In this document: positions 15,614 to 61,777 of the stretch, in pieces | Layout of the letters: the number at the start of each line of letters is the position of its first letter | How positions within the stretch are numbered: the first letter of the stretch is position 1 | From: a virus | Lineage: Duplodnaviria > Caudoviricetes | Reading direction: 5' to 3' (one strand) | Virus record (IMG/VR): IMGVR_UViG_3300032138_000002 | Coordinates: 64,001-128,000 of that record | DNA length: 64,000 bases | Program-made: the position numbers and the translations under genes | The notes under the pieces: model-generated | Database searches by the model: none | Seen by the model: the letters and a program-made list of their open reading frames with translations, nothing else | Told to the model about the DNA's origin: nothing

Positions 15614-15643
15614 ATTATATCAGATATCGATCTTTAATTTAAA
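15614..15643 (-). promoter_or_regulatory. Sigma70-type promoter TTTAAA-N18-TATAAT (TG extended) heading the resolvase-primase-SbcCD operon; probably leaderless
   Basis: Sense TGATATAAT-CATATT-ATG; no SD. Confidence 0.65.
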
Positions 15644-16957
15644 TGTAAAATCTCGAGTCGCCGTTTTTTTAATTGGGTTGGCCAATTTCGCAATTCCAAT
15701 CAAATTTTTATTTCTATCGTAAACACCCACTTTAGAAATGTAAGTGGTTTTTGCGAAGCTCCCGGTTCCATTGGGAAAAGAACTGCTCACGATATTCTTA
15801 ATTTCAAAGGTGGGGTCTTGGGTATACCCGGCTGAGCCACTCATAACGCCGTGCATAGAGCCCGAAAAGGAAGCGTTGGTATCTCCGGCTGCTGAAGCGG
15901 TGTTTGCGACCGTAAAGGTGGGGTTATTAGAGAAATTCAACTGCCCGCGGGGTGCATGTGCGAACATAGTCACAACGGGAGTATGGTTGGTGCCCTCGAA
16001 TTCCATGCTATAACTAGAAGAGGGTATATTAAGAGAACCTGAACCATCGTTGGGAATTCCGGTGCCCCAATAAGTCCACGTGGGGTTCGTGGCGGCGGTT
16101 GTAGCATTATAAGTTTCAGTATGGGGACTTAGAGCCCATGAACCAGTCAATAATACGATGCCTTCATTGTAAAGTACGACGCCTGCGACGCTCCCACTCT
16201 CGAAACCGGCGTAGGTTCCGCTTACCTCAATTAAATTACCGTTTTTATAGATATCTTTACATTGTGCTGCGAGTGTCCCACTCACATAAAATTTAATATC
16301 CATTGACCCCTTTTTAACTCCGGATCCACAAAAAATAGAAGGGATGTTAATAAAGTTTAGTTCTTGTGTTCCCTTATCCCACTGTGCAGTTCCATCGGAA
16401 ACATTTGCAGAAGCAGTATAAGCATATTGATCACTTAAATACGTATAATAATTTAATGTATTTTTCAAGGCATCAATGTGAGAACTGCTGACAGTCAGGA
16501 TTTGGGTCTTGTTTAGTTCGGGTAAAAAGACTTCTTTATTAGCCAAAATGAAGCGAGACTGATTCGTCCCAAAATATTGTCTAGCAATACTTGCTGAGAG
16601 CGGGTAACTGGAGGTCATCCTTGTGCCGTAGTCAGTTGTGTTATAAGACCCCGTAGTTATAGTGGAAAAGCCCATGCCTGAGGACCCCTTTACTATGAAG
16701 GGGCGGATTAAGGAAATATTGCCGGTGCCGGTTTCCCAATTATAAGTATCTAAATCTTCTGCTCTATCAACATTGAGTTCATACAAACTCACACTACCAA
16801 CAGGGTTTAACGTTACGTTAGTGGGGGTGATACTTCCGCTTTCATAAGGGGTGTTATTAAAAAAGACACTGCCACTATAAACCGTAAAGGAATTTCGTGG
16901 ATAAGTCTTAATTCTGTTTACTAAGACGTCATCTCTTCCAAACTTATAGTACGACAT
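15620..16957 (-). CDS. Virion/baseplate protein with tail-collar-like C-terminal motif
   Basis: C-terminus YISKVGVYDRNKNLIGIAKLANPIKK; paralog of 16973-17998; SGS/TGS rich. Confidence 0.7.
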   Translation of the reverse strand: MSYYKFGRDDVLVNRIKTYPRNSFTVYSGSVFFNNTPYESGSITPTNVTLNPVGSVSLYELNVDRAEDLDTYNWETGTGNISLIRPFIVKGSSGMGFSTITTGSYNTTDYGTRMTSSYPLSASIARQYFGTNQSRFILANKEVFLPELNKTQILTVSSSHIDALKNTLNYYTYLSDQYAYTASANVSDGTAQWDKGTQELNFINIPSIFCGSGVKKGSMDIKFYVSGTLAAQCKDIYKNGNLIEVSGTYAGFESGSVAGVVLYNEGIVLLTGSWALSPHTETYNATTAATNPTWTYWGTGIPNDGSGSLNIPSSSYSMEFEGTNHTPVVTMFAHAPRGQLNFSNNPTFTVANTASAAGDTNASFSGSMHGVMSGSAGYTQDPTFEIKNIVSSSFPNGTGSFAKTTYISKVGVYDRNKNLIGIAKLANPIKKTATRDFTFKLKIDI

Positions 16958-16972
16958 CGCATGACACCGCGG

Positions 16973-17998
16973 CTAATAATCCAACCTTACTCTTAACGTA
17001 AGCTCGGTTTCTGGGGATTTCTTTAATGGTTCAGATATTTTGGCTGTCGCTAATAGTTCGTTATCAGCAGAATAGAGGCCTACAGCCGTAATATAAGACT
17101 GTGGCTGATCTAGTGTCGATTCCTTGACACGGATTTTACTGGCTGAAAGATATGTGGGGTTTGAACTATAGTTAAATTCATTATGATTTGCTCGGCAAAA
17201 ATATACCGTCGAGTTTAACTCTGTAGTGTTGTTCCAATCATTGTTGTTCCAAATGTGTCGGAAAGCATCACAAGAGGCGCTAATAGCAGAGCCTGTCAAC
17301 ACGGCAACCAATCGCTCGGCGTCGGAGTTTGCGATACATTGAGCAAAAGAGGACGTGTGAAGAACCGCTATACCAGCTTGATAGAACAGAAGTCCGACGT
17401 TGCCCGAGAGTGAGCTAGACAGAATAGAATATTCACCAGCCGGAGAATCAGTATAAAAATCAGTAATGTTATTAGTAGTGGGGCAAGTGATTGTATCATT
17501 AGTTCCACTCATTGCTGATGGCCATTGGCGAGCGATATCCTTGTCTAGACTAAGTGTGAAGCTTCCTTTCTTAACTTCGTCTTTGCAGAGAAGTCTCGCA
17601 AAACTAACAAAGAAAACTTCTTTAAGTTTGCCACCACCAGGAATTTGAAATTCTTTAATGGCACCGGTCACGTCGTGGCCCATAAGTACTTGAGCCATTT
17701 GATTATAAATGTTAATCTTCTTGTCTTGCTGAGTTACATTAGAAGATGCACTCAAAGCCGAATTAGCTGAATATCCAAACGAGACATCAAATATATGATT
17801 TGCCGAAGAACTCAAATAAGGATAATCGTAGGTCGATTGGAACATGCCGTGAGAATAATTCTTTATGTTGGTCGTCGCAGTAGCGAGTTCACTATAAGTT
17901 CCGGAAACGATTGACCCCGTGAGAGGAATTGCTTCGTGCAACAAAGTCTTTGTTGCCGTAACGTCGTCGCTAGTTAATGGTTTGAAAGTAGTTGCCAT
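16973..17998 (-). CDS. Virion/baseplate protein with tail-collar-like C-terminal motif
   Basis: FNYSSNPTY and YITAVGLYSADNELLATAKISEPLKK; paralog of 15620-16957. Confidence 0.7.
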   Translation of the reverse strand: MATTFKPLTSDDVTATKTLLHEAIPLTGSIVSGTYSELATATTNIKNYSHGMFQSTYDYPYLSSSANHIFDVSFGYSANSALSASSNVTQQDKKINIYNQMAQVLMGHDVTGAIKEFQIPGGGKLKEVFFVSFARLLCKDEVKKGSFTLSLDKDIARQWPSAMSGTNDTITCPTTNNITDFYTDSPAGEYSILSSSLSGNVGLLFYQAGIAVLHTSSFAQCIANSDAERLVAVLTGSAISASCDAFRHIWNNNDWNNTTELNSTVYFCRANHNEFNYSSNPTYLSASKIRVKESTLDQPQSYITAVGLYSADNELLATAKISEPLKKSPETELTLRVRLDY

Positions 17999-18010
17999 GT
18001 TTTAATCACC

Positions 18011-18988
18011 TTATGAGTTTATCTTCAGGAATCTTACTGGGATGTCAATTCTATATCCCGTGGTTACACCTGTTACTTTAATCGTTGTATCAATATAATT
18101 CGTAATCGCTGTGTCACCGTTAACTCTTGTAAAGTTTGCGGTGGTCGAGACCGTTCCCATCTTTTCAAATAAAGTGTCACTGCGTTGGAGTTCTATAGTT
18201 GCTAAAAGTTTGAATTCCAACTTGGTTCCGCGGGGGCCGCGGATTGTTTCAGTGGCCTCGCTTGTGGTATCTGTGCTACTAATTCGAGAAACAAAGTTAC
18301 CATCGGAACCGAGCGAAACATAATAAGTTGCGATCTGGTCGTCGTCCACAAATGATTTGCGGGCGGGTGTTCCAGTCGTGGATACAACCGTTCCCAAACG
18401 ATCATCGATCTCCAGGAGATATTGTGTCTCTACCAAGTCTCTGTCAAGGGGGATTTTGGGATCAATGTCGGCGGTGTCCAAGCCCTGGTCCAATCGGATA
18501 TGTGATCCGACCCTAGGGTTAATTCCGTTCATCATCCCGTTACCACTTGTAAATAGGCCCGGGTTTGATGTCGCATCCTCTAAGCGAGAGGTTGTCTCGT
18601 CGGAAAGAATAATGAACTTTTCATTAGCTTGTGCTGTGCGCTCGTTACGCTGTGTGTCTTTCATTGTCTCGTTCAATTTAGTAATTGGCAGATACAACAA
18701 GTCAGTGCGGGGGATAGAAACAAGTTTAGATTTCAAAAAAGAAGTGTTATTTGTGAAAGCTTCCAATATAGGGGTTTGCAAAATCTCCAAATCATAATAA
18801 GCGGAGCCACTTGGGTGGGCGCCCTTTGAATTGTTTGAATTGCGGAAAAGTTCATAATTAATTTCGTCATCTCCCAGTGCAAATTTTGTAATGGCGAAAG
18901 TACCATCCCCCTTCGCTAAGCGAAAGCGGCCCGTGTCGGTTAAAACTGCATCCAGAATGATGTCTCCTGAGTTATCTAAAAATCCCAT
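18011..18988 (-). CDS. Virion/baseplate protein with tail-collar-like N-terminal motif
   Basis: LTDTGRFRLAKG...ITKFALGDDEINY; paralog of 26022-27020. Confidence 0.7.
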   Translation of the reverse strand: MGFLDNSGDIILDAVLTDTGRFRLAKGDGTFAITKFALGDDEINYELFRNSNNSKGAHPSGSAYYDLEILQTPILEAFTNNTSFLKSKLVSIPRTDLLYLPITKLNETMKDTQRNERTAQANEKFIILSDETTSRLEDATSNPGLFTSGNGMMNGINPRVGSHIRLDQGLDTADIDPKIPLDRDLVETQYLLEIDDRLGTVVSTTGTPARKSFVDDDQIATYYVSLGSDGNFVSRISSTDTTSEATETIRGPRGTKLEFKLLATIELQRSDTLFEKMGTVSTTANFTRVNGDTAITNYIDTTIKVTGVTTGYRIDIPVRFLKINS

Positions 18989-19012
18989 ATTTATTCTCCC
19001 GTGAATTCAAAA

Positions 19013-19036
19013 TAATTAGTTATTCCTTTTAAATAG
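19013..19036 (-). promoter_or_regulatory. Tandem putative late-promoter motifs (CTATTTA, CTAATTA)
   Basis: The same motif recurs in most intergenic gaps upstream of structural genes. Confidence 0.6.
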
Positions 19037-19066
19037 TCCATATTTTATAAAAAAACTAAAGGGTTA

Positions 19067-23419: not shown

Positions 23420-23421
23420 TA

Positions 23422-26028
23422 TTAATCCTCCACCGTAAATACGGTATCGATTTGCATGTTTTTATCAAAGGGGTCATCGAATATTCCTGCTTTTTTGTCT
23501 ACCAGCGGTCTCAAGCGGCAAAGGTCACCCGGAATTAATTCCATCGGAGAACTCACTTGTTTATAAATAGCCTTCTTTGCTTTTTGCAAATCTCCAGCGA
23601 CTGTTGCATATCGAACAAACTTTTCAATTACCACAGGCTTCATCTGTTCTGAGGCCTGTTTCCGGGGATTATAATTATCAAACAATTTTTGCAAAACTAT
23701 ATGTGGATTTTTACCTTTGTTTTTAGCCCGGCTCAATGCGGCATCCAATTGAAGTTGATCTCCATAATTTAAAGATCCTGTCATATCGGTGGTTTCGTCG
23801 AGAACCGAAACATATTCGTCGGCTTCTCGTTTAGAATCGTATTGATAAATATTATCAACAGTTATACTATTTTTGCTTCCCCACTCTATTAATTTTAACG
23901 TTGCCGTATTGTCGTTAGTTCCGATATTCTCGACGCTACGGATTTTTGTAGCAACCTTGCTGTCTTCTTTGATCAAGGCAATATCAATATTAAGCGACGG
24001 GGGAATCGGGTTTTCTCCCAGTTCTTGTTGTAAAGAGCCCGGGCCCAATGGGATAGCCTGCGGGAGCAGGAATGACCCGGGGATGGTAGTACTAGGGCCG
24101 CGGGTGCTTTGGGCCACTAGAGGTGGTGTCAAGGCCGTCAGAGTGCTAAGGCTTACCGTCGACGGGCCAACATTCTTTGTTGAAACGTCCATATATTTTC
24201 TTCCGAAATTTTTGGGGGCGTTAAGACTTATTTTGTCTTCTTTAAACCACTTTTCCCTAACAATTGTTCTGGAACCCCTAGAGCCCTCAACATTGGTCGC
24301 CACCAAGTCACCTTTAAGAAACTTTTTATTTTGGCCGGCATTGTTCTTGCCCAAAATCTGTCCGACCCGGGTTAACAATTGTCGATTAAATTCAATGAGT
24401 TTGCTCATATTGGCCGGCGTCGTGCAGGAAATGTTAAGCAGTTGAGACATTTTAGTCACATTGATTGGATTAGAAGAAAACATGTTCAAAACTTCTACAT
24501 GTGCTAACAGCGCGTTGGTGATTTTCTGTTGGTCTGACCGGTAGACCTCCTCGGCTGTGGAACTATATCTCCCCTGTTCCTTATTAAACATTCCTTTCTG
24601 TGTGGTTCGATCATAAAAAGAAGTAAACACATCATCGATCTCGTTTAATTGGCGATATTTTGGTTCTAAGACTGGAGCGAGAGGGTCTGTTACCTCTATT
24701 TTGAAAGAGTATGTATATGTGCCGGCAGTTTTAGTAGCCGCTTCATAATCGGTTCCGGAGAACATGCGAATTTTAGTTGTTTCAGTATTTCTTCGTGTTT
24801 CTTTTATTCCGCCAATCTGTTGCCGAACTCCGTTAACTCCTTCTGTTTCCATTATTTCTGTGTTTCGGCCTATTAAATCCGAAAATGTAGCCACCAGATG
24901 TGGTTCTTCATCAGGACTATTGCGAAAAATGCTTAATTGTTTTATTTGAAAGCCGCGCAATAGCTGCTCCTGCGTCGTATCAAAGTGTTGTAGAGTTGCG
25001 CCGCGGCTTATTTGAGAAAGCAGCGTTTCCATATCCAATGAAAAGACAAAATTTACTTGTTTTTCCAAGTCTCTCGTTAATTGAAAATCTATAAATATTG
25101 GGGCGTTTTTAGCGTGGAGTGTGTGATTATCTGTGCGCACCTCATCAGATTGGTACCACGCAGGTTTCCCGATATTATTTTGCGCGGCTGTGCGGGGAGT
25201 TTTAGCCTGTGAGGCCGCCTTAGGGGTCATCCATAAAGGTTGAATTGGTGGCATATAATACAACATATCCAACACACGTAGGTCTTGTACTAAAGGGTCC
25301 ATAACGGCCAGGCCCCCTTGAATCACACTTTTATAAGCAGGGAAGCCGGCCGAAACCTTGTTCATCGTCGGAGAAGAGGACATGTCCAAAAACGGAACTA
25401 CAATGAACATCATAAAGCTTGTGGAGGCCGGGGCGGTAAATAACGTAGAGGCCGTAAATGGGAGATCAATAACAATTTTCCCGTTAGTTGTGTTAGTCCG
25501 CCGTTGGAGGCGCGCGAGTTTTTGTTTTAAAACAGAGGAATCAACGCTAATAATTTCATGTTCATACCCGGTAGATTTCCCATTTTGGCGCGGACCTACG
25601 GCGCCAATGGTTGTAGCCGTTGTGGCTGTAGTTACGCTAGTGGGTGTGATCAGTTGATCTAAACTTCTGTAATGATTTAAAATATATTGGGCCGAGTGAG
25701 GTGACGAACTTTTAGGAAGGGCCCGATAAAGTTTTTCGTCTGTTATCTTCAGGACCAAATAATTCATGCTCTCGGCAATACCTTTTTTGTATAACCAACC
25801 AGTTGTTACCTTCTCTTTATTATTCCTACCAATAACCATTTCGCTAAAAAAGCTGACGCGGGCTTTAATATCATTAGCCCCTTTGCCTGCAATGGTAACC
25901 ATTATATCTTTAACATTAGGTATGCTAGTTTCGCGATTTCCGGTGCGTGATAAATCAGTTCTACGCAAACCTTCGGGAGGAATAATTCGATTCACACGGT
26001 TTCTGTCGTTCGGTGGTGTCATCAGCAA
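23422..26028 (-). CDS. Hypothetical virion structural protein (868 aa)
   Basis: Long ORF tightly packed within the structural cluster; no family recognised. Confidence 0.55.
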   Translation of the reverse strand: MLMTPPNDRNRVNRIIPPEGLRRTDLSRTGNRETSIPNVKDIMVTIAGKGANDIKARVSFFSEMVIGRNNKEKVTTGWLYKKGIAESMNYLVLKITDEKLYRALPKSSSPHSAQYILNHYRSLDQLITPTSVTTATTATTIGAVGPRQNGKSTGYEHEIISVDSSVLKQKLARLQRRTNTTNGKIVIDLPFTASTLFTAPASTSFMMFIVVPFLDMSSSPTMNKVSAGFPAYKSVIQGGLAVMDPLVQDLRVLDMLYYMPPIQPLWMTPKAASQAKTPRTAAQNNIGKPAWYQSDEVRTDNHTLHAKNAPIFIDFQLTRDLEKQVNFVFSLDMETLLSQISRGATLQHFDTTQEQLLRGFQIKQLSIFRNSPDEEPHLVATFSDLIGRNTEIMETEGVNGVRQQIGGIKETRRNTETTKIRMFSGTDYEAATKTAGTYTYSFKIEVTDPLAPVLEPKYRQLNEIDDVFTSFYDRTTQKGMFNKEQGRYSSTAEEVYRSDQQKITNALLAHVEVLNMFSSNPINVTKMSQLLNISCTTPANMSKLIEFNRQLLTRVGQILGKNNAGQNKKFLKGDLVATNVEGSRGSRTIVREKWFKEDKISLNAPKNFGRKYMDVSTKNVGPSTVSLSTLTALTPPLVAQSTRGPSTTIPGSFLLPQAIPLGPGSLQQELGENPIPPSLNIDIALIKEDSKVATKIRSVENIGTNDNTATLKLIEWGSKNSITVDNIYQYDSKREADEYVSVLDETTDMTGSLNYGDQLQLDAALSRAKNKGKNPHIVLQKLFDNYNPRKQASEQMKPVVIEKFVRYATVAGDLQKAKKAIYKQVSSPMELIPGDLCRLRPLVDKKAGIFDDPFDKNMQIDTVFTVED

Positions 26029-27020: not shown

Positions 27021-27033
27021 AGTCTTTCAATAA

Positions 27034-30000
27034 TTACTCGGAATTATCCTTTTTTGTGAACTCTATTTCGGTATCAACCTTGGCTAGTTCCACCAATGAG
27101 AAGAAGTCATAAGGCCAGTTATAACTGTAATTTGGAGTTTTCTTTTCTCCGCCAACTTCGAATTGGAAAGCAAAACGGTCATCGTCGGTAGAATCTGCTG
27201 TCGCTGCATAGTAGTTAGAAGCGGCTCGGCGTTTAACCTTAAATATCATCCACTGAGTTTCCGCGGGGGGCGCTTTGCCTCCGAAGAACTCATTAGAAGT
27301 CATCTCGTGGGATATCGAAACTGATTGTTTTTCTGCTGTCTTGGCGATTTTGGGCATTAGATTTTGCCAAATATCAGAGAGATCCTCACGGTCCAAATCA
27401 TGTGTAAATTCAAACATATACATTGCAAATGGGGAAATTTTAGTATCTGTCAAGAAATCTAAATGTGGGGGGATCACATATTTTTCCATCGTTTCGACCA
27501 TATGAACAATGGAATCGCCCGGGATACGATTAGTTGTTTCTAATCTTTCAATTTCCCGTTTATTAGCAATACCTCGAACATACTTGATTTGTGATTTCAA
27601 AAGAGGAAAGAATTTTCTTTTTCCTTTCTTTTGCACAAAAGGAATAGCAACAACACATTCTCCAATCTCTTTTTTGCTCGCGAGTTCCCCAACTCGTTTT
27701 TTTGTACCTTCAAATCCGCACACGTCTAGAAGAGACCCCGTATTTGTACTTTCTAGCGTGTTGACCTTATCCGGAAAACTTTCTTTAATGCCTAAGAAAA
27801 TGCCTGCGGATCCGCTTGGAACATAACCGTATTGTCCCCAAATAGTGGTGGCTTGGCTTCCTGACGAGTATGGAGTTTCTCCGGTTTCTGCTATATATTG
27901 TGATAGGTTATTGTTGGCCGATTGAGTGAAATTTAGAGTTGGGCATTCGAATTTTGGACTGATTGTCCACACATCGTATGAAGAATCCGACGCATCTTCG
28001 GCTGTGGATGCCACAAACTCATCGCCGGAGGTTTCGCCGGCCTCGTATGTAACTTTTTTGACACTCGTTTTGCCAAATAAATTTACTGAAGATGTCAACC
28101 TCATTTGTGACAGACCCGCGGTGTGGCCGTTGTCGGTAGCTCGTCGCAACCACTCCGTATCGTCATTAGCACTAGATGTAAATATAGTTTCTATTTTGCA
28201 CCCTGCTAATATCTCGTCTAAAGTAAAAAATTTAGTTTCATTTTCTAGGAGAGCCTCATGTTGGTGTGGGGTAAAGGCCACGCGTGCTACCGCAGAACCA
28301 TAAAAATAAGGGGGAGTAAAGGGGGCAAAAGCAGGGTCGGTGACATTTATAGATTCTGCATAATATCCTGGAGGTTTAAGTGGGTGAGACACTTCGCTGG
28401 AACTCACAAACTGGCATGGGGGGCCAAAAAATGTCCCACGATAGTTTCTGCTGCCCGTTACATAAGTGCGCATATCATCCGAACCAGTAGTTTCCAAAAC
28501 AACAATATCGGTTAGCCCCTCGCTCATTACAAAATCCGAACTCTTACGTAGCTCTACATCCATATAATAAGTGGATCCCGATTGCATACTTTTAAAAGTT
28601 CTTTCAGGTTTAGAGGTGAGGTTTACAAACCTTGAATTATTTAAGAAAAATTGTGGAATTTCGGCTAAAAAGTTATTCATCGCCAGGGGATAGTTAAGCT
28701 TATTTTCTCCGTTCCAGTCAAAAAAGGAGTTATCTGTGGTTGGCCCGTATAGCGATGCAGTGGGTCTGTGTGGATATTGCATGTATATCGCGCTGGAGCC
28801 ATCTGATGCCGAGGGTGGTAGATAACGACTTGGGTCTACCAAAGCTTCGAATGGAAGTCGATAATTGAATAAACCGCCCGCTCCAGACAAATATCCTAGT
28901 CCGGTGGAGGCGTTGGCGTCATCAACATTCGGGCCTAAAGTTCCAGAACCCAGTGATCCGGTTACGGTAGGCCAATCTACTGCAATACCACTCTTTATTG
29001 AGTTGTACAGGATGCCCGGAGCGAAAAATGGTTGCATTAAAGATATAAGACGTTCTGCGTCGTAAGATCCCGTTTTAGTCAATGATGATCCCGATATGTT
29101 CTCCCCAAACGACCGAGAGAGTTCACTGCCCAATTGTACGCTGCGGAGAACCGGATAAAAACCATTATAGGGCAATAATTTTTTAACCCCTTCGCACGTC
29201 AAAGTAATTTTATTAACTTTGTTATTTTCTTCTTTGAATTCTCCAAAATGTTTCATAAAGTCTGTATTACTATAAATTTGGAAAAAGTTTTCATTATAAC
29301 TAGATGTCGGAGTGTCTGCGCTGGCTGATACCGCGGTTCCGTTAAGCGTTAGAAATCGATTATTAAAAGAAAAACCATTATCAATATAGTGATCCATATG
29401 TTCTGATATGCGGAATTCTGGTACCACACTATAGTTTTTACCGAATGTCCGGATGTCCGATGCGTAGTCCTCATAGGTATCGTGCCATGGCGCATTGTCA
29501 GACATCACATCAGCATTCCAAAACCCGCCGCTGGGGATAGTGGAGGAAACACTAGGGTTGGTGATACCTTGTTTGAGAAAAAGCCCGGGGTATTTTATAG
29601 TGTTGAACGCTGGGTCACCACGGAGCGCGCCGGCGCTGGAAGAGTATAATATTGCCCAATTATTAAAGTAAATATACGATTGAGAGGCCGTCAGGGGACC
29701 TTGCCAGCCGCCGTCCGCATATTGCCCCGAAGCTCCATAAGTATAGGGAAAGCTACTTGTGGCTGTAGCTCTCAACCATTGTCGCCACATAGAGTTATAT
29801 AATTCACCATTTGGATATTGCCGTAAAATATACGGGAAACTACCGGTTCCGGTGAACCATTGGTTTGAATCCAAAGGCCATGCAGATAGGCCGAGCTTCC
29901 ACATAGCCATTCTGTCATTCTTGGGTACATCCCCCGAGAGAAAATAGTTAAGCGAGGCTGAACCCACATACTGAGACAGTGTGGTGCCCATAGAGTTTTT

Positions 30001-33000
30001 AGCCATATTATTATTACGTACACGATAGGAAGGCGCGTTTGGAAAGAGCGGTGCGAGAAGGGGGAGATCGGTGACCCCACGAGACCGCCAAAAAGTATTC
30101 TGCGTTCCCAGAGTTCTATTAAAAGCTGCCGAACCACTTTCCTCTACGAATTCTAGACGGCCTCGAACTTTGGCTAAGTATGTGTTTTCTTCACGAGGGT
30201 AAACTGTTTCTCTATAAGTAAAGCTATTAAGAGTAACGTCTGTATTGTTTGCCACGCGATCTACAATGACATCATGTACTTGTTCCTGATTAGTTGGAAC
30301 TCCTAAGCGTAAATCCATTTCCGCATTAGTCATGAAGTCCAAATTGTTGCCGTAAGTATCTCGCAACTCTACGATATTATTCATATTATCTTGAAGTTGG
30401 TGTGTCATTGGCTTAAACTTAGACGAAGCAGGAGGTACAGTGAACTTTTTGATGTCTCTAGCATACTTTAAAGTATTTTCTTTTAACTCTCCGGCATAAT
30501 AACTTCCCTGCGGCCGAGGGCCTGATGGGAGTGGGCGAGTAACAAGTATATCAATAGTGTTATTCTTTCTTTGCTCTCGGACAATTGGATTATCATGACC
30601 GCGAATCTGTTTCCACGTAGGCCACCCATAAGGACCTTGGCGATGGTGAATAAGACCGTTAAGGAGTTTGGATCCCGAAATAGCTGTATACGAAGGATTA
30701 GAAGAGAGGGAATAAAGAAGTCCGCCTCTATAATTAAAGTCCGTTGACGAAGCAATGTTTTGAGAGGGGTAACCCCTCGTATTTGTACTCGAAGTAATGG
30801 GCTCATAGATGTTGGAGTTAAGTCCTACGAAATCATTGGCTAAAAAGCCTGTTAAGCCGGAGTTAACATCTGGCCCATACACACGCCCGGGAGTAAAAAG
30901 GGCGCTTCCGAGAGAACTTGCGGTGAGGAATTTAATGGGACTAGACCATCCTGCAATTCCGGCTGCACCAGAAACCGTTCCGTCATAATATCGACTATTA
31001 GATGTGTACCCTACTAATGGGTGGGTACCTACGTTTGCCCCACTGATTGAAGAAGTGATCCAGGCATATTGTAATTCGCTTCGGGGGATGGACACATTCA
31101 TAAATAAATTATCATACACAGATGCCGTCACATAACGATTAGGATTAAATTCACTCAGCACATCCATGGCAGCGTTGCCAAATTTCATGATACGGTGTGT
31201 GTTACGGTTGACTTGCTGCCAAGAAGCTGTAGTATCGTAGTTGTCAGCTTGGATTGAGCCAAATTCGCTATCGATACCAAATTTGCCACAGTGTCGTGCT
31301 GTCAACACATTCAGGCCGTCATCGCGAGTATGAATTTCCGTATGAACATCGATGGCCATTTTATTATTGTCGTTGGCGCCGTCGGATCCAGAACTAGCAA
31401 TTACAGTCTGATTCTTATAAGGTAACGCATTATAAACTGAATATTCTTCGGACGGTGTGTTCATATACCCTCGCGAACTAATTTCAAAGCCGCCGGGTGA
31501 GGCACAGCGATTAACGATAATCGACTCTGTTTTAGGTCGCGAGGGTAATTCGAAGTTAAGGTTTCCTGTCAAGAACGCAACTTCCGGCGTTTGAGAGGCT
31601 AAGTCTTCGGAATTATGAACAAACCATCGGTTATTTGCCGTACGGCTATTGGAGGATACCACGTCGGTGTTGCGAGAGAAGTTTCCAATTACAGTGGTTT
31701 TTTGTTGGGCAGACCCCGTAGCTGTCTTAAGATTTTTAATAACAACCGGGCGTTTCGTGCCAAGATTAATATCAGATCTTGCAAGATCCAGATTAAGTGT
31801 TCCGGATTTTGTTTTACGGGGCTCATAAATACTGACATCTGCGCCAATGCCGCCGGCTAACGTTGCCGGGGAAGCGCCTGTGCCGCCGGCAACAAAAGTT
31901 CCGACAACATCTGTGAACGTAATATCATTTCCCGCGGCGCCCGGAGCGGTCGCGGTCACCTTGAATTTATTCGTAGTGCTGCCTGCTTCGGCAGTGATCC
32001 CAGCAACACCATTGGTTGCGTCACCTGATCCTGCTCCATACGCAACAGAGTTTGATGGAGATGGAGTGCCGCCGCCAATAGCGATGATTATGCGGGCGCG
32101 GATGGCTGCAGCGGTTCCCGCTGAGCTAAATTCTACTTGGTTTGCGGTACCGGCAGATGGTGTTCCAGCCACCATTTTGATAGTTATGTCGGTTCCGGCG
32201 CCTCCAACTGCAGATGGAACATTAACTGTGAATTTGTCATTGTCGCTGGAGCCAGCCAGGCTCAAAACGTCGTCGCGGGAAGCTGCCACGGATGCGCTCA
32301 AAAAACTTGCAGGCCCGGATATTCTAAATCTTTCAGGACGAGAGTAGTTATTTTGGCTTCCGGAGGCGACAGGTTGTTTGCGATTTAAGAACCCTCCCTC
32401 GTTTTGTCGAGCGAATGGGCCTTGGAGGGGTGTTTCAATAGTGGCGGCGACGTCTTGTTGAATGTTGGTAAAAATTAGTCCCTGACTACTGCTATAAAGC
32501 GATGGGAAACTATTTGGCATCCGACTTCGTTTACTTCCCCACAGCCGGCTGTCGACAGATGGGAACACCTGCACCTTTGGAATAAGATTAATCGGAGTCC
32601 AACCGGGTGTTTCTTCGTCTGGTTCGGGGGTTGAATCGGGCTCTTGGTAATCAATCAAATTAATAGAATTGACTGAAAGGGTGGCATCCCTAACTGATGG
32701 GGCCTCTAGCGTCTGCTCCTTTTTTAAATTGGTCGCGCCGGCGTGGAGTACCACGTCTTTGTTCAGGGCAGACAGGCCGCCTCGTTTAGACAATAAGTTT
32801 TCCGCTTCTTGATTAGAGCTTTTCTTGGGAATATTAGATGAATGTCTTCCTCCCATGGGGTTAAACATCACTCGTCGAAGGGCTTCGCGGGTTTCGTCGA
32901 CTGAAGTATTACCTGAACTAATAGCTGAGATCTTTGTGGGGTCCGCTGCTGTCTTCCACCAAACTGGGTTGGTGTTTTGACTGCCTTCTGTTGGGGACGC

Positions 33001-36000
33001 TTCTACAGTGGCGTGGTTCTCTCCCCAAGCAGTGCCATTATTCGAGGCCTCGCTTATGTTGTCAGGCTGTTTTGTTTCGAGTTTGGCCGCGGAACCCTTA
33101 CCTCCGATATAGTAATCCAACATGGGGTATTTATTCCAGTATTTGTTCCTTTCTAGAACATGGCTCTCGACAATAGTGCGCAGACCAGAGGATTTTCCGG
33201 CGGAAGCGGGAAAAAGTTGTTCCACCATATATCCGATCGCATTATCGATCCAGCGATAATAGCTGAGATATTTATCAATGTCCGGGTCGTTATCAATCTT
33301 TTCGAAGAAAAGCTGTCTTAGCTTCCCAAGAGTTTTATAATCTTGACGGTAGCGGTTTACCCCATGACCAATCAGGCTATTAAAATCTTTTAGCGTCGCA
33401 AAGAAATTAATCATTTCTTCGGAAATAGCCCTATACATACTTTTTTCTAGAGAAAATTGATAGGTCGTCGGGCGAGTTTCCCGAGTAAATTCAATGTCGT
33501 CGCGCTCTAAAATTGTCACCATATCTGAGCTATCAATCTCTTCTGGAAGGGATTGTTTAGCATTAGAAATATATTGATTTCCCACCACATTTGAGTTCGA
33601 TGTGGCGAAGAAGCCTCCCCGGCCAGTTTGGTTGTAGCCAAGAACGTTTCCGAGCCAGCGATATCGTTTGGTCATCGGAATGGAGCCAGATGAAAAATCC
33701 TCGATTTGGAAACGCCCTGAAGCGTTGGAACTCGTTACCGTACTAAAGTCCCAGTTTAAAAGCAGTGTCGCGCTCTTGGGGACATATTGATTATTACCCT
33801 GAAAGACGGGAGCAATAGGCACAGCCGACGATGAATTTTCAAACAAATAAGCACTTTCATAGGGATAAAAGCGTCCAAAGTTAGTAATGTCAGACGCATG
33901 CGCATCAATTTCATCGTTTTGAACATAGTCAAACCAAGCTCGGGTAGACCCTATCTTAAGGTCGGTATGATTTAGGAGGGAGCCCGTAAAGTCGGTACGA
34001 TACGCGCCGGTATAGAGACGCTTAGGATTTTTTAAAAATTCGTCTCCATAACTCTCTGCTACTGATGCAGTTAAATAAAAGCTATTTGTTTTTACATAAC
34101 CGTCGTATGATACTCCATAAAATTCATATTTGTAACCATTAGCATCTTCGCTGCCATCGACTGTATCTCTGTAAGGGTACGACTTAGGTACAACACGTAC
34201 AGCGATATTCCATTTTTGATTCTCATACTGATCCTTGAAATAAGAGCTTGTCAGGGTAGTGAGGCCGGGCATCGCGGCATTAGACGCAGATAAGATAAAT
34301 TTTACATTTTGAGAATTTTCTTTTTCTCTTGCAACATACACCTGGAAATTGGCGTAGTCAGTGGTCGCGTAACCTGTAGGCCACCGTGTTTCGGTGCCGT
34401 CGGATGTATCACCAACTTGATGAATTCCAAAAACCGAAGAAGACAGGTAGGGATAAAGCGCGTTAGCTGAGGAACCAGAATAATAAATCGACAGTTGATT
34501 TGGGAGAAGGAACTCGCACTCATAAGTTTGAGCCATTCCATTTTCCAAAAATGTTTCCGCGGGATATTGAGAGGCTGAGATGAAGCCTGTAGTCGTCGCA
34601 GACGATAATTTATATTGGTACATGGTTGCGCCCCAATTATCTTGGGTGCTAAAATCTACAAATTTCTTTTTCTTGGTACGTAAATTAACATTCTTATCAA
34701 ATTCGTGAGTATTGTTGTGAGTATAAACGTTCAACTTTACAATTTCTTCATCGATTCCGAAACAACGAATAAGATTACGAATTGACTTTTCAGTTCCTTT
34801 AGCCTTATAAATGTCTGTGAGGTTGTTATAAATGTTTTTATAAATCAGATTTTTAACATTAGACAACTTATCCGAAAAACGAATGAAATCATTTTGATTC
34901 ATAAATTGTTCTAATACTGATGCGTCTGCGAACATCTCTGTGGTCAGGAACCCTTTGCCTTGCAAAACCTTCTCATTATATGGGAATGCCTTTTGTTGAC
35001 TTCCGCTTATACTTGCGCTAACATATGTTTTATCTTGTAAACGTGGGAGATATTTAATTTGTGCAGATACGTCATCAAAATAATTTGCCATAATCTGAGT
35101 TAATTTGAGGAGGTTTTTCCCAGTTTCATCATCTTCTGAAATAATCCACTCGGGCAGCGAATTATAAAGGGAGGCGGCATTTTCAAAGTCATAAACCTGT
35201 CCCTCTCCCGTCTTGGCCGTTATAAGATTACCCACCTCGGGATGGGCACGATACATAATAGGGTCTTTAAATTCTGTTATCGAGGCAGAAGATTCTACAA
35301 TCGCGGATCCCGTATTCCTGGCTGTGGCTGTATAGCCAGTCCAAGTTCCGTTCGAAACACGGCCAGAAAAGTCCAATACAATGGAATCTAAACTGGTTGC
35401 TCCGGTGATACCCTCATTAAATTTAAAATATACTCCGAGATCTGTGTTGGCTAAATCGACATTTGTACCTGCGCCGATGGCGCCATTGTAATTGAGGCCC
35501 ACTTGTTTAGCATCCCTGCTCGACTTCCAGAATCTAAGTTCGTCTAGGGAGCCTGAGAGCTTACCATAGCCTCTCATAAGCTCCATGTCCTCTCCAACGG
35601 CTGTGTTGTAGGTCCCGCCTTCTGTACCCGAAGGAGAGGCCACTAAGGCCCCTACATTCGCCACCATGGCCCCACTCACATAATCAATAGTGGAGCCGGT
35701 GAAGAGTGACTGATTATAACGGCCGTCGACATAAAGAGAAACTTCTACGGCCTTCATATCCGGCTGGAGGCCGCCGCCGCTGGCCTGCGTCGTATCCACC
35801 GGTGGGAAAGTTTGTAAACTGCCGAGTGAGCCGGTATTTTTAATAGTAACGGCGTAGTGCTGCCATGTGTTATCGGCCATACTAGTGGTAGTAATACTTC
35901 CAATTGGTACTCGCCAGAACCCATTGGTACCTGACATGCACGTGACATACAACGGGCTGCTATTCGTATTTCCTGAAACTTCAACTCGGAGGCGCCCATA

Positions 36001-36699
36001 ATTTACACTGGACGAGATGCTGCTGGTTGTAAAACAATCAAAAATGGTTTCAAACCCGCCACCATTAATACTTGATAAGAACTCTGACTTCTTCAACCAA
36101 AATTCGACAGTATTTCCTGTAGCGCCGTTTATTTCTAGATTCGAGCCCCGCTTATCACTGAGATTAAAAAAGTTGGCGCCCTTTCGTGTTGAAGTTCTGT
36201 CTTGTATCTCGATAAAACTATTGCGAACAGCGTTATTGTCTGCATCCGCATTGGGACCGCCTTTTACTAAAATATATTCTAAATCGGAGGATTTATCGTA
36301 ATCTCCAATAGTTGCAGCTTTGGTCCCCCAGCCGTCGCCCTCATTGTCCGGTGAAAATATAGCGTATCCAGTAGTTCGAGGATATAACTCATTGAAAATA
36401 TAGAGATCTAAGTAAGAAGAAGAATTGAGCCATGCCTGCTTTTCATATAAAGATCCGTCATACGGATAATCCTCGTACACTCTCCGAATAGAAGCTTCGT
36501 AGTATTCTTCAGCCGAACCAAATTTAACAAAGTTCGCCGGAGAAGAATAATCAATAGGGGGAACATACCGGTGTTGAGCCTGCGCAACTGCATAAGCATT
36601 TCTATCCGACTCTGCGTTGTCTCCAATTTCTTTGGTAGATTTCGCAACAAATATTTTTTTTTGGCCTTGGCCTTTAAATAAGTCTTTTAGATCGCTCAT
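27034..36699 (-). CDS. Giant baseplate wedge protein (gp7/P2 gpI-like core) with LamG/concanavalin-like domains, 3221 aa
   Basis: IYKAKGTEKSIRNLIRCFG (gpI/gp7-type motif); LamG pattern TVEFW...WQHYAVT...LYVDG...GSLDELRFW...YFKFNEG; located after gp25 and gp6. Confidence 0.75.
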   Translation of the reverse strand: MSDLKDLFKGQGQKKIFVAKSTKEIGDNAESDRNAYAVAQAQHRYVPPIDYSSPANFVKFGSAEEYYEASIRRVYEDYPYDGSLYEKQAWLNSSSYLDLYIFNELYPRTTGYAIFSPDNEGDGWGTKAATIGDYDKSSDLEYILVKGGPNADADNNAVRNSFIEIQDRTSTRKGANFFNLSDKRGSNLEINGATGNTVEFWLKKSEFLSSINGGGFETIFDCFTTSSISSSVNYGRLRVEVSGNTNSSPLYVTCMSGTNGFWRVPIGSITTTSMADNTWQHYAVTIKNTGSLGSLQTFPPVDTTQASGGGLQPDMKAVEVSLYVDGRYNQSLFTGSTIDYVSGAMVANVGALVASPSGTEGGTYNTAVGEDMELMRGYGKLSGSLDELRFWKSSRDAKQVGLNYNGAIGAGTNVDLANTDLGVYFKFNEGITGATSLDSIVLDFSGRVSNGTWTGYTATARNTGSAIVESSASITEFKDPIMYRAHPEVGNLITAKTGEGQVYDFENAASLYNSLPEWIISEDDETGKNLLKLTQIMANYFDDVSAQIKYLPRLQDKTYVSASISGSQQKAFPYNEKVLQGKGFLTTEMFADASVLEQFMNQNDFIRFSDKLSNVKNLIYKNIYNNLTDIYKAKGTEKSIRNLIRCFGIDEEIVKLNVYTHNNTHEFDKNVNLRTKKKKFVDFSTQDNWGATMYQYKLSSATTTGFISASQYPAETFLENGMAQTYECEFLLPNQLSIYYSGSSANALYPYLSSSVFGIHQVGDTSDGTETRWPTGYATTDYANFQVYVAREKENSQNVKFILSASNAAMPGLTTLTSSYFKDQYENQKWNIAVRVVPKSYPYRDTVDGSEDANGYKYEFYGVSYDGYVKTNSFYLTASVAESYGDEFLKNPKRLYTGAYRTDFTGSLLNHTDLKIGSTRAWFDYVQNDEIDAHASDITNFGRFYPYESAYLFENSSSAVPIAPVFQGNNQYVPKSATLLLNWDFSTVTSSNASGRFQIEDFSSGSIPMTKRYRWLGNVLGYNQTGRGGFFATSNSNVVGNQYISNAKQSLPEEIDSSDMVTILERDDIEFTRETRPTTYQFSLEKSMYRAISEEMINFFATLKDFNSLIGHGVNRYRQDYKTLGKLRQLFFEKIDNDPDIDKYLSYYRWIDNAIGYMVEQLFPASAGKSSGLRTIVESHVLERNKYWNKYPMLDYYIGGKGSAAKLETKQPDNISEASNNGTAWGENHATVEASPTEGSQNTNPVWWKTAADPTKISAISSGNTSVDETREALRRVMFNPMGGRHSSNIPKKSSNQEAENLLSKRGGLSALNKDVVLHAGATNLKKEQTLEAPSVRDATLSVNSINLIDYQEPDSTPEPDEETPGWTPINLIPKVQVFPSVDSRLWGSKRSRMPNSFPSLYSSSQGLIFTNIQQDVAATIETPLQGPFARQNEGGFLNRKQPVASGSQNNYSRPERFRISGPASFLSASVAASRDDVLSLAGSSDNDKFTVNVPSAVGGAGTDITIKMVAGTPSAGTANQVEFSSAGTAAAIRARIIIAIGGGTPSPSNSVAYGAGSGDATNGVAGITAEAGSTTNKFKVTATAPGAAGNDITFTDVVGTFVAGGTGASPATLAGGIGADVSIYEPRKTKSGTLNLDLARSDINLGTKRPVVIKNLKTATGSAQQKTTVIGNFSRNTDVVSSNSRTANNRWFVHNSEDLASQTPEVAFLTGNLNFELPSRPKTESIIVNRCASPGGFEISSRGYMNTPSEEYSVYNALPYKNQTVIASSGSDGANDNNKMAIDVHTEIHTRDDGLNVLTARHCGKFGIDSEFGSIQADNYDTTASWQQVNRNTHRIMKFGNAAMDVLSEFNPNRYVTASVYDNLFMNVSIPRSELQYAWITSSISGANVGTHPLVGYTSNSRYYDGTVSGAAGIAGWSSPIKFLTASSLGSALFTPGRVYGPDVNSGLTGFLANDFVGLNSNIYEPITSSTNTRGYPSQNIASSTDFNYRGGLLYSLSSNPSYTAISGSKLLNGLIHHRQGPYGWPTWKQIRGHDNPIVREQRKNNTIDILVTRPLPSGPRPQGSYYAGELKENTLKYARDIKKFTVPPASSKFKPMTHQLQDNMNNIVELRDTYGNNLDFMTNAEMDLRLGVPTNQEQVHDVIVDRVANNTDVTLNSFTYRETVYPREENTYLAKVRGRLEFVEESGSAAFNRTLGTQNTFWRSRGVTDLPLLAPLFPNAPSYRVRNNNMAKNSMGTTLSQYVGSASLNYFLSGDVPKNDRMAMWKLGLSAWPLDSNQWFTGTGSFPYILRQYPNGELYNSMWRQWLRATATSSFPYTYGASGQYADGGWQGPLTASQSYIYFNNWAILYSSSAGALRGDPAFNTIKYPGLFLKQGITNPSVSSTIPSGGFWNADVMSDNAPWHDTYEDYASDIRTFGKNYSVVPEFRISEHMDHYIDNGFSFNNRFLTLNGTAVSASADTPTSSYNENFFQIYSNTDFMKHFGEFKEENNKVNKITLTCEGVKKLLPYNGFYPVLRSVQLGSELSRSFGENISGSSLTKTGSYDAERLISLMQPFFAPGILYNSIKSGIAVDWPTVTGSLGSGTLGPNVDDANASTGLGYLSGAGGLFNYRLPFEALVDPSRYLPPSASDGSSAIYMQYPHRPTASLYGPTTDNSFFDWNGENKLNYPLAMNNFLAEIPQFFLNNSRFVNLTSKPERTFKSMQSGSTYYMDVELRKSSDFVMSEGLTDIVVLETTGSDDMRTYVTGSRNYRGTFFGPPCQFVSSSEVSHPLKPPGYYAESINVTDPAFAPFTPPYFYGSAVARVAFTPHQHEALLENETKFFTLDEILAGCKIETIFTSSANDDTEWLRRATDNGHTAGLSQMRLTSSVNLFGKTSVKKVTYEAGETSGDEFVASTAEDASDSSYDVWTISPKFECPTLNFTQSANNNLSQYIAETGETPYSSGSQATTIWGQYGYVPSGSAGIFLGIKESFPDKVNTLESTNTGSLLDVCGFEGTKKRVGELASKKEIGECVVAIPFVQKKGKRKFFPLLKSQIKYVRGIANKREIERLETTNRIPGDSIVHMVETMEKYVIPPHLDFLTDTKISPFAMYMFEFTHDLDREDLSDIWQNLMPKIAKTAEKQSVSISHEMTSNEFFGGKAPPAETQWMIFKVKRRAASNYYAATADSTDDDRFAFQFEVGGEKKTPNYSYNWPYDFFSLVELAKVDTEIEFTKKDNSE

Positions 36700-38333
36700 G
36701 ATTTTTCTTCAACTCTGAATTTGAATATCTCTGGCTGTTCCAGATAACCTTCTCCTGTATAGTATGCAAACTTAATGCCGTACGCATAGTCTCGTTCTAA
36801 GAGTGATATGTCAAAATCAAAATAGTTGCCAGAAACATCAAAGGATAACCTGGTATAATCAGATTTAGATCCTGTAGCGCCTGGTGCGCTTCCTGTTCCA
36901 AACACCACTGCGTCGGTATTGTCTGCTAATCTATAAACTCTATAATAGGCATTATCAATAATCGTATTTTGTACGTCTGCCGTGGCTTTTGTGTAAATAT
37001 TTTTTGTGTCGCCTATTTCCCGGATAAATACTCGGAACCGGGGCTTTTCTGTTTTGCCATATAAATCTTTTAAATTAGTAATTTTAGTGGTATAAGTTGG
37101 CGTTGAATAAATGGGGGAAGTACTAAGAGTGGTGGGAACGAAGCTTCCTGTGCTGAACTGAGCTATAACGTTCGAACCGGCTGCATTGTTTGTGTCCTCA
37201 CTTCCCGTAAACCATACATCATATATGCGCGTTAATGGCGTAGACGCGCCTGTAAGAGCGACAGAGGCCGAATATATCCCCGTAGATACATAACCCCCTG
37301 TAACGGCGAAAACGTTAGTGCTTCGTACGTGTTGGCCGTCCGCTACACTTTCTAAAGCATCACCCGTAGGGGCTGTGTTGTCAAGGTTTCCAGAGAAAAA
37401 AGAAACATAGATTTCACCGGTGTAATCCGTAGCGATGTTGGGGATATCAGTGAGTTGTCCCCGGACATAGTTGTACAGGTAGAGAGTATTCAAGTTTTCT
37501 AAAGCGGTAGAAAGAGAACTGCTATAAAAGAAATTTCCCCTGTCATCTTTTTCGGTGTTGTCGTAACGAGCCTCAACACAAGGGCGTTTGAAAAAAAACT
37601 CACTCCCGCGGGCAAAGAATTTTTTAGTATAATAGGATTCCTTAGATCCTGTGGTATTAAGCACGAGGGCTGTCGACGTACCGGCGGAAGAATAAGCTTC
37701 TTGAGACCCTGTTAATTTTACCATAACACCGTAGTTGGGAATGCCCCCTCCTGAAGCTCCCTTTATCCATTGTTCAACCAATTCGGAGATATCCACTTCC
37801 ATACTCTCAGTACCATCTGGAAACGTCACAGTATAAGTCGTCGCGGGGCTTTGTTGACCGTAAAAGTCTCCCCCTACATTGTCCCAGCTAAGGAGACCTG
37901 CTGATGATGTAGCTCGGCGGAGCCAATTGGAACCCGAACCGTCATAGGTGGAATCCGAATATTCATCATTATCTAGGCCGTTTCCCTCTTCCCACTCTTG
38001 ACGCATAGGCGCTACTACCAATTGGATGTTTTTAGGCACCGTAAAGGCATGTGCGGCATTGAAAAGGCGAAGATAGAAAGAAACATTTCCCGATGCAGGA
38101 AGAGTGCCCGCGGTTCGATCGGAACTAATATCTGAAATAGGAAATCGTACCATGGAGCGTGCTAGCTCCTGGGAATATCCATAGGTGCTGCCAGAATTTT
38201 GTCCGTAAATCGAAAATACTTCCATAATATCCGATTCGCCTGTATTGGAGCCGGTTCCGCGGGTGGTTAAATTAGCCTTAAACGCATTTGTGATGGTATT
38301 ATCGGCATCGGCAGTATATCTTTTTATAGGCAT
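36696..38333 (-). CDS. Baseplate-associated protein with DNRLRE-like beta-sandwich domain
   Basis: ADADNTI, RSMVRF, YLRLF, WEEGNG, DISELVEQW, NYGVMVK pattern; between gp6 and the gp7-like gene. Confidence 0.6.
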   Translation of the reverse strand: MPIKRYTADADNTITNAFKANLTTRGTGSNTGESDIMEVFSIYGQNSGSTYGYSQELARSMVRFPISDISSDRTAGTLPASGNVSFYLRLFNAAHAFTVPKNIQLVVAPMRQEWEEGNGLDNDEYSDSTYDGSGSNWLRRATSSAGLLSWDNVGGDFYGQQSPATTYTVTFPDGTESMEVDISELVEQWIKGASGGGIPNYGVMVKLTGSQEAYSSAGTSTALVLNTTGSKESYYTKKFFARGSEFFFKRPCVEARYDNTEKDDRGNFFYSSSLSTALENLNTLYLYNYVRGQLTDIPNIATDYTGEIYVSFFSGNLDNTAPTGDALESVADGQHVRSTNVFAVTGGYVSTGIYSASVALTGASTPLTRIYDVWFTGSEDTNNAAGSNVIAQFSTGSFVPTTLSTSPIYSTPTYTTKITNLKDLYGKTEKPRFRVFIREIGDTKNIYTKATADVQNTIIDNAYYRVYRLADNTDAVVFGTGSAPGATGSKSDYTRLSFDVSGNYFDFDISLLERDYAYGIKFAYYTGEGYLEQPEIFKFRVEEKS

Positions 38334-54249: not shown

Positions 54250-54689
54250 CTTATTAACTCTTCCTTATAGTAAGCGGCTCTGTCGCTGCATATGCCCGCA
54301 CAGTGCCTTAATTCCTCAGTTATTTCAGGAGGGGGTTTTACAGCTATCGAATTTTTAACCAAGGTTTGACCTGGGTATGTCCAAATATAACCCCTGTTAG
54401 TTAAAGCAAAATTATCAGTCTGATGCCAAAAACAATGGACGTCCAACCTCAGCAATCTTTCAAGGGCGTTTAAATTTTTGGCGTGACACCAGAAGTTTTT
54501 ATTAAAAAGGAAGTTGGTTGGGATATATTGATCAGAACCATCATGTCCCAAATAAAAGCTCCCCTCTTTCCACCACACATCTATTTCTACTTCAAACCCC
54601 TTATAAACTGCGTCTAAAATATAGTTGGGAGTATTTTCAAAAGCAGGCTGTGGGCCTATGATGTTGCCTCTATGGGCTATTATTTTCAT
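54246..54689 (-). CDS. GDPD/PI-PLC-like phosphodiesterase-fold protein; start re-called to 54689
   Basis: MKIIAHRGN, ENT, VEIDVW, LGHD, GICSD; ATGA overlap with the upstream gene. Confidence 0.75.
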   Translation of the reverse strand: MKIIAHRGNIIGPQPAFENTPNYILDAVYKGFEVEIDVWWKEGSFYLGHDGSDQYIPTNFLFNKNFWCHAKNLNALERLLRLDVHCFWHQTDNFALTNRGYIWTYPGQTLVKNSIAVKPPPEITEELRHCAGICSDRAAYYKEELIR

Positions 54690-58281: not shown

Positions 58282-58289
58282 TAGTATTC

Positions 58290-61775: not shown

Positions 61776-61777
61776 TT

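Follow-up and report, generated by a model that had tools for sequence, protein, structure and literature searches.

The DNA considered here is a window of 64,000 nucleotides, bases 64,001-128,000 of one phage contig of 159,483 bp (IMG/VR record IMGVR_UViG_3300032138_000002; estimated to be ~90% complete) from an uncultured marine phage. Its positions 15620-38333, the distal portion of the baseplate/tail module, encode several proteins crowded with tripeptides of the form [ST]-[GAS]-[ST]. Genome-wide, this motif is a protein-level feature confined to virion proteins: the pooled virion proteins contain 202 motifs, twice the 101 expected, whereas the remaining open reading frames (ORFs; 37,163 residues) contain 107 against 101. 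Judged from the sequence, the motif may be a recognition or acceptor tag for cytoplasmic O-glycosylation of virion proteins, an interpretation regarded here as somewhat likelier right than wrong. In related phages, its excess accompanies a tandem pair of glycosyltransferases (GTs) of the GT4 family.

A sequence-only reading of the window had counted about 20 of these tripeptides in a protein of 445 amino acids (aa), about a dozen each in the 341- and 545-aa proteins and more than 50 in the 3221-aa protein. The counts were exactly reproduced (20, 12, 13 and 68, respectively), and the expectations from composition are 6.2 (z 5.9), 4.2 (z 4.0), 6.4 (z 2.8) and 27 (z 8.3). The comparison with shuffled sequences that had been suggested as a check upholds the excess after both whole-protein and 20-residue local shuffling (z 2.6-8). 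It also holds with shuffling inside blocks of 40 and 100 residues and exceeds a first-order Markov expectation (20 vs 13.4 in the 445-aa protein, 68 vs 48.7 in the 3221-aa protein). An artefact of Ser/Thr/Gly-rich composition might be suspected, as Ser + Thr content is higher in the enriched proteins than in the rest, and related small-residue tripeptide classes are likewise enriched 1.7-2.3x. However, the excess withstands all of the above controls, z reaches 14-15 for [ST]-G-S, and the proteins of cyanophage P-HM2, although equally rich in Ser, Thr and Gly, show [ST]-G-S at ~1.2x. The excess moreover recurs in every orthologue set of close relatives. The compositional explanation is thereby already effectively refuted and keeps next to no probability. 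The tripeptides had also been said not to be DNA repeats, and so it proved: Ser codons within the motifs match the background and BLAST revealed no internal repeats, which points to selection on the protein and not to a repeat in the DNA.

The true core of the motif is narrower than [ST]-[GAS]-[ST] and reads hydrophobic-[ST]-G-S-hydrophobic, in which Ala or Ser may replace the central Gly. [ST]-G-S was observed 43 times against 7.5 expected (5.7x); in the pooled enriched virion proteins, its enrichment is 4.8x (z 14.9). SGS is enriched 4.9x and TGS 6.8x, the third residue being overwhelmingly Ser, and [ST]-[AS]-S reaches 2.5-3x. Most Thr-ending variants are not enriched, TGT, SAT, SST and TST being at or below expectation. 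In the middle position, Gly is found 53 times against 13.9 (3.8x), Ala 30 against 12.7 (2.4x) and Ser 30 against 17.9 (1.7x), with Thr depleted. The preceding hydrophobic residue noted earlier was found 49 times against 27 expected. Hydrophobic residues are also favoured at position -2 and directly after the motif (43 vs 27), and charged residues are nearly excluded from the position before it (4 vs 17). Other sequons are not enriched in the same proteins: the Bacteroidota O-sequon D-[ST]-[A/I/L/V/M/T] occurs 29 times against 39.1, an observed/expected ratio (O/E) of 0.74, and O/E is 0.94 for N-x-S/T and 0.80 for the PglB sequon D/E-x-N-x-S/T.

Besides the four proteins counted above, the sheath (17 observed, 8.7 expected), the capsid protein (9/3.7) and a neck-like protein (9/2.4) are enriched. 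Eight of the nine capsid motifs lie outside the conserved core. Both tail fibres do carry motifs, as had been claimed, but the enrichment there is marginal (Table 1). Of the neighbours described as motif-poor, the 1450-aa, 2576-aa and gp25-like proteins are so, whereas the gp6-like and 868-aa proteins turned out to be mildly enriched. The excess in the gp6-like protein arises mostly from Thr-ending variants, and neither its orthologues nor the counterparts of the 868-aa protein in relatives are consistently enriched. Enrichment is lacking in the 1450-, 2576-, 332-, 325-, 358- and 674-aa proteins as well as in the gp25-like, portal and hub-side proteins.

Co-occurrence of the motif with glycan genes in related phages had been proposed as a further check. 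It was examined by computing the [ST]-G-S O/E of nine genomes with one ORF caller and one statistic. Genomes with the tandem GT4 pair gave 2.34 (the phage described here), 2.49 (Flavobacterium phage immuto, vB_FspM_immuto), 2.38 (Microcystis phage Mel-JY01, PP395634) and 2.67 (Rhodothermus phage RM378, with a weakly similar partner GT4). The other values were 1.41 in LR756508, which has the catalytic GT4 only, 1.10 in LR756511, without a homologue of the pair, 0.71 in T4 (AF158101) and 1.33 in cyanophage P-HM2, both lacking GT4, and 1.23, that is, no excess, in Tetrasphaera phage TJE1 with one distant GT4. The check thus came out positive, O/E being 2.3-2.7 in 4/4 phages with the pair and 0.7-1.4 in 5/5 without it. 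The pair-less five include two members of the same clade. LR756508 has the capsid closest to that of the present phage (54% identity), yet a low O/E, and RM378 is positive while being the most distant member; the split is therefore not simply one of relatedness.

In immuto, all enriched ORFs lie in virion modules and encode the sheath, fibres, a "tail spike" and proteins downstream of the baseplate wedge gene. The motifs of immuto, including those of fibres not homologous to the ones described here, follow the same flank pattern, with hydrophobic residues 80 times against 45 at -1 and 95 times against 45 at +1, and charged residues 4 times against 21. The fibre and baseplate proteins of T4 lack an excess (gp34 13/10, gp37 10/9.7, gp12 6/5.2), and the giant Ser/Thr/Gly-rich virion proteins of P-HM2 show 1.3-1.5x for the broad class. 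As neither T4 nor P-HM2 has a strong excess, this is a trait of the lineage and not a general property of myovirus fibres.

Some single proteins of the compared phages deserve mention. In T4, the sheath gp18 (9/4.0-4.1) and the tail-tube cap gp48 (10/5.4) have a mild excess of the broad class and none of [ST]-G-S. An 805-aa protein of Mel-JY01 (635-3052) contains 123 [ST]-[GAS]-[ST], mostly S-G-T; it looks like a low-complexity repeat and inflates the broad-class count of that genome. LR756508 is a 484-kb megaphage with two tandem 824-aa sheath paralogues (202,463-208,400), neither of which is enriched.

The glycosylation had been thought to be fed by the genes at 53-64 kb of the window. That region does encode sugar-nucleotide and tailoring enzymes, but the GTs lie outside it, at genome positions 131,327-135,455. 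Its Pfam matches comprise an epimerase/dehydratase, an APS kinase, a sulfotransferase-like protein, nucleotidyltransferases, HAD phosphatases, an aldolase, a kinase, a fusion of NTP-transferase and RibB, and a methyltransferase. The cluster continues at genome positions 127,736-135,455 with DegT, FkbM, UDP-GlcNAc 2-epimerase, a GT2-like gene and two tandem GT4 genes (417 and 423 aa). Altogether it has ~22 genes, and all of the products are soluble except for one transmembrane segment in the APS kinase. Genome-wide, no polytopic membrane protein was found that could be a flippase, polymerase or oligosaccharyltransferase. The ~90% complete genome has no match to PF12851 (TET/JBP), PF00303 (ThyA family) or PF00145 (C5-methylase) and hence no such route to glycosylated DNA. 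A soluble cluster with neither export genes nor a DNA-modification route makes a cytoplasmic acceptor likely, and virions assemble in the cytoplasm.

The 423-aa protein matches PF00534 (Glycos_transf_1, GT4) at 39.7 bits, above the cut-off of 26.4, and has the E-x7-E signature in its C-terminal Rossmann domain; E290 and E298 are invariant in 11 homologues. Its best solved relative is the chlorovirus GT B736L (PDB 3OY2, E 5e-5), the similarity being that of a generic GT4 core, and Gtf1 (PDB 4PQG) is a weak sequence match (E 0.003). The 417-aa partner stays below the cut-offs (PF00534 21.3 vs 26.4 bits; PF20706 24.1 vs 26) and looks like a divergent GT4, in which E281 is invariant and the residue eight positions on is Glu by consensus. 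The idea that it is a dead partner resembling GtfB was rejected: the retained E-x7-E-like motif suggests an active enzyme and not a dead subunit. All five near-complete close relatives have 2-3 tandem GT4 genes and variable numbers of epimerases, and the two genes stand in tandem at 12 of 13 additional loci. In immuto, the tandem GT4 genes are gp181 and gp180.

Several neighbouring or fused genes were observed in and around the cluster. In two IMG/VR relatives (L142:3853-5850 and L144:3920-6076), a fusion has given the partner GT4 an additional domain at its C-terminus (665 and 718 aa vs ~420), possibly the downstream GT2-like protein. A PD-(D/E)XK (Cas4-like) nuclease at genome positions 135,467-136,228 (window ~71,467) adjoins the GT4 gene(s), as it does in immuto (gp183) and LR756508, and is one gene away in Mel-JY01. 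The gene at window positions 60375-61817 joins a nucleotidyltransferase with an intact RibB (DHBP synthase) domain (Pfam E 2e-72), which hints at an activated four-carbon unit from ribulose 5-phosphate. The APS kinase (54686-56237) has an N-terminal DUF2061 hydrophobic segment and lies beside a weak sulfotransferase match, an arrangement that suggests PAPS-dependent sulfation of the cluster product.

The excess is maintained within the lineage. The gene order and the protein-specific motif pattern recur in 14 related contigs. Marine metagenomes contain more than 2,700 homologues of the 445-aa protein; the best 120 of them (~40-50% identity, one at 92%) are all enriched, with an overall O/E of 3.2, and share ten sites conserved as a class, S/T, G/A/S and S interchanging at each position. 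Enrichment extends to the orthologues of the 341-aa protein in all relatives examined as well as in immuto and Mel-JY01. Those of the 545-aa protein have 13/7.7, 13/4.7 and 15/5.7 motifs. The orthologues of the 3221-aa protein have 63/34.5, 75/33.7 and 35/13.1 plus 18/7.7, all ~2x. Motif sites of the 3221-aa protein are conserved at 28-55%, against 9-12% expected from non-motif Ser/Thr/Gly (3-5x), and more than half of them have turned over. The neck, sheath and capsid orthologues of the present phage, immuto and Mel-JY01 are each enriched 2-3x while having only 3, 3 and 1 motif columns in common. The LR756508 orthologues, which have the same fold, retain it at just 1 of 10 shared positions and show no enrichment. 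Density is thus kept where positions are not, and the fold does not require the motif. Such maintained density with turnover of positions is as expected of a modification tag, so far as these alignments suggest.

As proposed, the soluble cluster would build one or more unusual activated sugars, probably aminated and methylated and perhaps sulfated. The two tandem GT4 enzymes would then start and extend the glycan by adding sugars sequentially to the tagged Ser/Thr. The targets would be newly made fibre, baseplate, sheath, neck and capsid-extension proteins, modified before or during assembly. Every step after sugar building is what we infer, namely the action of the GTs on protein, the identity of the acceptor residue, what the glycan is and what benefit it brings, be it protection, adhesion or stability. 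A broader proposal is that a phage-encoded, sequon-directed cytoplasmic O-glycosylation operates in a widespread clade of myoviruses from marine and aquatic habitats, whose hosts include Flavobacterium, Microcystis and Rhodothermus as well as uncultured organisms, and in which the GT4 pair would read the tag on outer virion proteins and lay down a lineage-variable glycan coat, here probably aminated, methylated and sulfated. This wider claim is put forward tentatively, at slightly below an even chance.

The motif could instead tag virion proteins for another process, such as phospho-, sulfo- or polyol-phosphate modification, an assembly chaperone or a decoration protein, with the glycan cluster directed at DNA, a small molecule or the envelope of the host. 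The kinase, nucleotidyltransferases, HAD phosphatases and RibB fusion, which follow a Lic-like logic, together with the PAPS-forming and sulfotransferase-like genes could build non-glycan O-linked groups, the GT sequences leave the acceptor undefined, and in RM378 the GT pair has no adjacent sugar genes. However, the excess tracks the GT4 pair specifically, export machinery for an envelope target is missing, and the usual precursors of DNA glycosylation are absent. A search that was not systematic found no co-varying candidate for a protein kinase or chaperone. This alternative is considered improbable, with a small share of the probability.

A number of findings weigh against glycosylation as the role of the motif. 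Its hydrophobic flanks suggest that the surroundings are partly buried. In the 445-aa family, the excess falls mainly in conserved segments (O/E 3.8 vs 1.4 in variable ones). The behaviour of the motif is thus not simply that of a shield evolving fast, and a structural role would fit this distribution too. In this respect, the sequence-only proposal of a glycosylation sequon shielding the virion surface needs amendment, while its restriction to virion proteins, co-occurrence with a glycan pathway, tracking of the GT4 pair and conserved density speak for it. Mapping of the motifs on a structure, also suggested earlier, was performed with an AF2 model of the 445-aa protein, whose moderate quality (pLDDT 65) applies to the outcome: none of the 20 motif centres lies in the interior of a strand and three of six tight hairpins carry a motif, but the association is not significant (p ~0.16-0.2). 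The three GTs were searched against solved structures, and the sequences gave no acceptor type. The four positive phages form one deep clade by similarity of terminase, portal, capsid and gp6-like proteins, and nine genomes offer few independent contrasts. The RM378 capsid (2/1.8), sheath (3/3.7) and 341-like protein (1/2.2) are not enriched, the excess of this phage lying in other proteins of unassigned role. LR756511, scored as pair-less, contains two GT4 genes of generic type, with one close to the capsid gene, and was rejected as a clean GT-free control. LR756508 had been predicted beforehand to be enriched and largely failed; the explanation by the missing partner GT is post hoc. The literature searched contains nothing on glycosylation in immuto, Mel-JY01 or RM378.

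Some of these findings would also agree with a structural or physicochemical habit of the beta-rich virion proteins of the clade, for example a tight turn or strand-end cap between hydrophobic strands, the glycan cluster being unrelated and co-inherited. The preference for Gly between hydrophobic flanks, the hairpins in the 445-aa model, the ten strongly conserved sites of its family in mostly conserved segments, the mild generic excess in the P-HM2 giants and the T4 sheath, and the origin of all positive genomes from one clade would favour it. However, same-fold orthologues in LR756508 largely lack the motif, and the three enriched phages place it at barely common positions. It recurs in non-homologous proteins (fibres, an extra N-terminal region of the sheath, the capsid extension, the neck), and T4 fibre proteins show none of the excess. 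At conserved sites, Ala and Ser freely take the place of Gly, a finding that speaks against a turn requiring its backbone geometry. The structural explanation is accordingly judged unlikely, but it retains appreciable weight. The 445-aa model itself has an Ig-like beta-sandwich core; Foldseek returned nothing for it at E <= 0.001, and the best hit of a wide VIA fold search (Z 5.2) was a generic Ig-like sandwich.

Few systems with glycosylated phage particles are known. The glycosylation of mycobacteriophage virions was reportedly treated by Freeman et al. in Cell Host Microbe in 2023. It is mentioned for mycobacteriophages Che8, Corndog and Myrna where they are cited in PMC12582341 and PMC10568470. 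By analogy, this system may be regarded as the closest precedent for virion glycosylation of the kind proposed here. In those cited accounts, GTs encoded by the phage reportedly glycosylate its virion proteins, and no export machinery takes part in building the glycan. The present phage likewise has GTs, two GT4 genes and one GT2-like gene, which are conserved in relatives. Compared with what the same accounts describe, it differs in belonging to a T4-superfamily myovirus clade with marine or aquatic Gram-negative and cyanobacterial hosts and in having a short dispersed tag on many proteins (fibres, sheath, neck), together with a conserved pair of GT4 genes and a sugar pathway that is much larger.

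For the acceptor motif, the closest precedent would be the sequence G-[T/S]-X, proposed for O-glycosylation of the S-layer protein of Kuenenia stuttgartiensis, whose glycan is HexNAc-rich and methylated (PMC5088730). In both, a Ser/Thr following Gly would be the acceptor and each protein has numerous sites, and the HexNAc-rich methylated glycan has its parallel in the UDP-GlcNAc 2-epimerase and methyltransferases of the phage cluster. The Kuenenia protein is, however, a bacterial cell-surface protein and not part of a virion. In the phage proteins, G-[ST] alone is enriched 1.4x against 4.8x for [ST]-G-S, so that the tag is longer than G-[T/S]-X.

The GtfA/GtfB O-GlcNAc transferase of serine-rich repeat adhesins resembles the phage genes in having two adjacent genes of GT-B/GT4 type, cytoplasmic glycosylation and Ser acceptors flanked by small residues (S-A-S, S-S-S). 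In contrast, GtfB is a non-catalytic partner, while the partner in the phage keeps the E-x7-E signature, and for this reason the pair is not placed in the GtfA/GtfB family. The phage tags are also dispersed in folded beta-rich proteins instead of long low-complexity repeats, and there is no accessory Sec system. In capsid glycosylation of chloroviruses and giant viruses, virus-encoded cytoplasmic GTs similarly act on the structural proteins of the virus, but the hosts are eukaryotic and the sequences resemble each other only in the generic GT4 core. The glycans of chloroviruses are attached by N-linkage to atypical sites.

The combination of a defined tag and a GT4 pair in this clade appears to be undescribed in the literature searched, in which no acceptor sequon for phage virion glycosylation was found either. 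If glycosylation at the motif is true, this would be the first such defined sequon and would provide a sequence rule for predicting sugar-coated virion surfaces from genomes alone. It would also explain why a large clade of marine phages devotes more than 10% of the genome to sugar chemistry without export genes, and would be relevant in the ocean to host recognition, to the stability of particles and to evasion of grazing or immunity. The proposal is directly testable, as three cultured phages (immuto, Mel-JY01 and RM378) combine the motif excess with the GT4 pair.

The phage belongs, distantly, to the T4 superfamily; by the sheath core, its nearest cultured relatives are cyanophages (~33% identity). 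Every long ORF of the window is on the minus strand. The transcription order is gp25-like, gp6-like and then the 545-, 3221-, 332-, 868-, 1450-, 325-, 341- and 445-aa proteins. The 445-aa gene is followed by genes of DNA metabolism (RuvC-like, primase, SbcCD-like) and then by two tail fibres, the terminase and the portal, while the sheath, neck-like and major capsid proteins are encoded immediately upstream of the window.

Table 1. Positions of motif-bearing virion proteins and of the glycan cluster in the window, with observed vs expected [ST]-[GAS]-[ST] where not given in the text
Feature	Position	Strand	Remarks
778-aa tail fibre	5951..8287	-	tail-fibre PHROGs; 15 vs 8.6-10, z 1.7-2.3, marginal
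271-aa tail fibre	8434..9249	-	tail-fibre PHROGs; 5 vs 2.2-3.0, marginal
445-aa virion protein	15620..16957	-	last gene of the baseplate/tail block; most motif-dense, 20 motifs
341-aa virion protein	16973..17998	-	distant paralogue of the 445-aa protein; 12 motifs
868-aa virion-module protein	23422..26028	-	9 vs 4.4, z 2.2, weak
3221-aa giant baseplate/fibre protein	27034..36699	-	68 motifs; no internal repeats
545-aa protein	36696..38333	-	directly downstream of the gp6-like gene; 13 motifs
gp6-like baseplate wedge protein, 596 aa	38333..40123	-	PHROG 219, E 9e-21; 8 vs 3.2, mild
In-window portion of the soluble glycan cluster	53284..64000	-	Pfam matches; continues past the window end

Upstream of the gp25-like gene, the 2576-aa protein (window positions 40568-48298) contains a peptidoglycan-binding domain (PF01471, E 5e-8). 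It is therefore probably internal and may be a giant tail-internal or hub protein acting at the cell wall.

Searches of PHROG and Pfam assigned no family to the 445-, 341-, 545-, 3221-, 1450-, 868-, 332- and 325-aa proteins, and DNA and protein searches with the 445-aa gene gave no match in cultured phages. The 445- and 341-aa proteins have a common C-terminal stretch of ~40 residues (BLASTP E ~1e-5), beyond which BLAST detected no other shared repeat domain. At least five proteins of Mel-JY01 end in the same C-terminal domain, an indication that fibre-like proteins form a family united by a C-terminal module for attachment or assembly.

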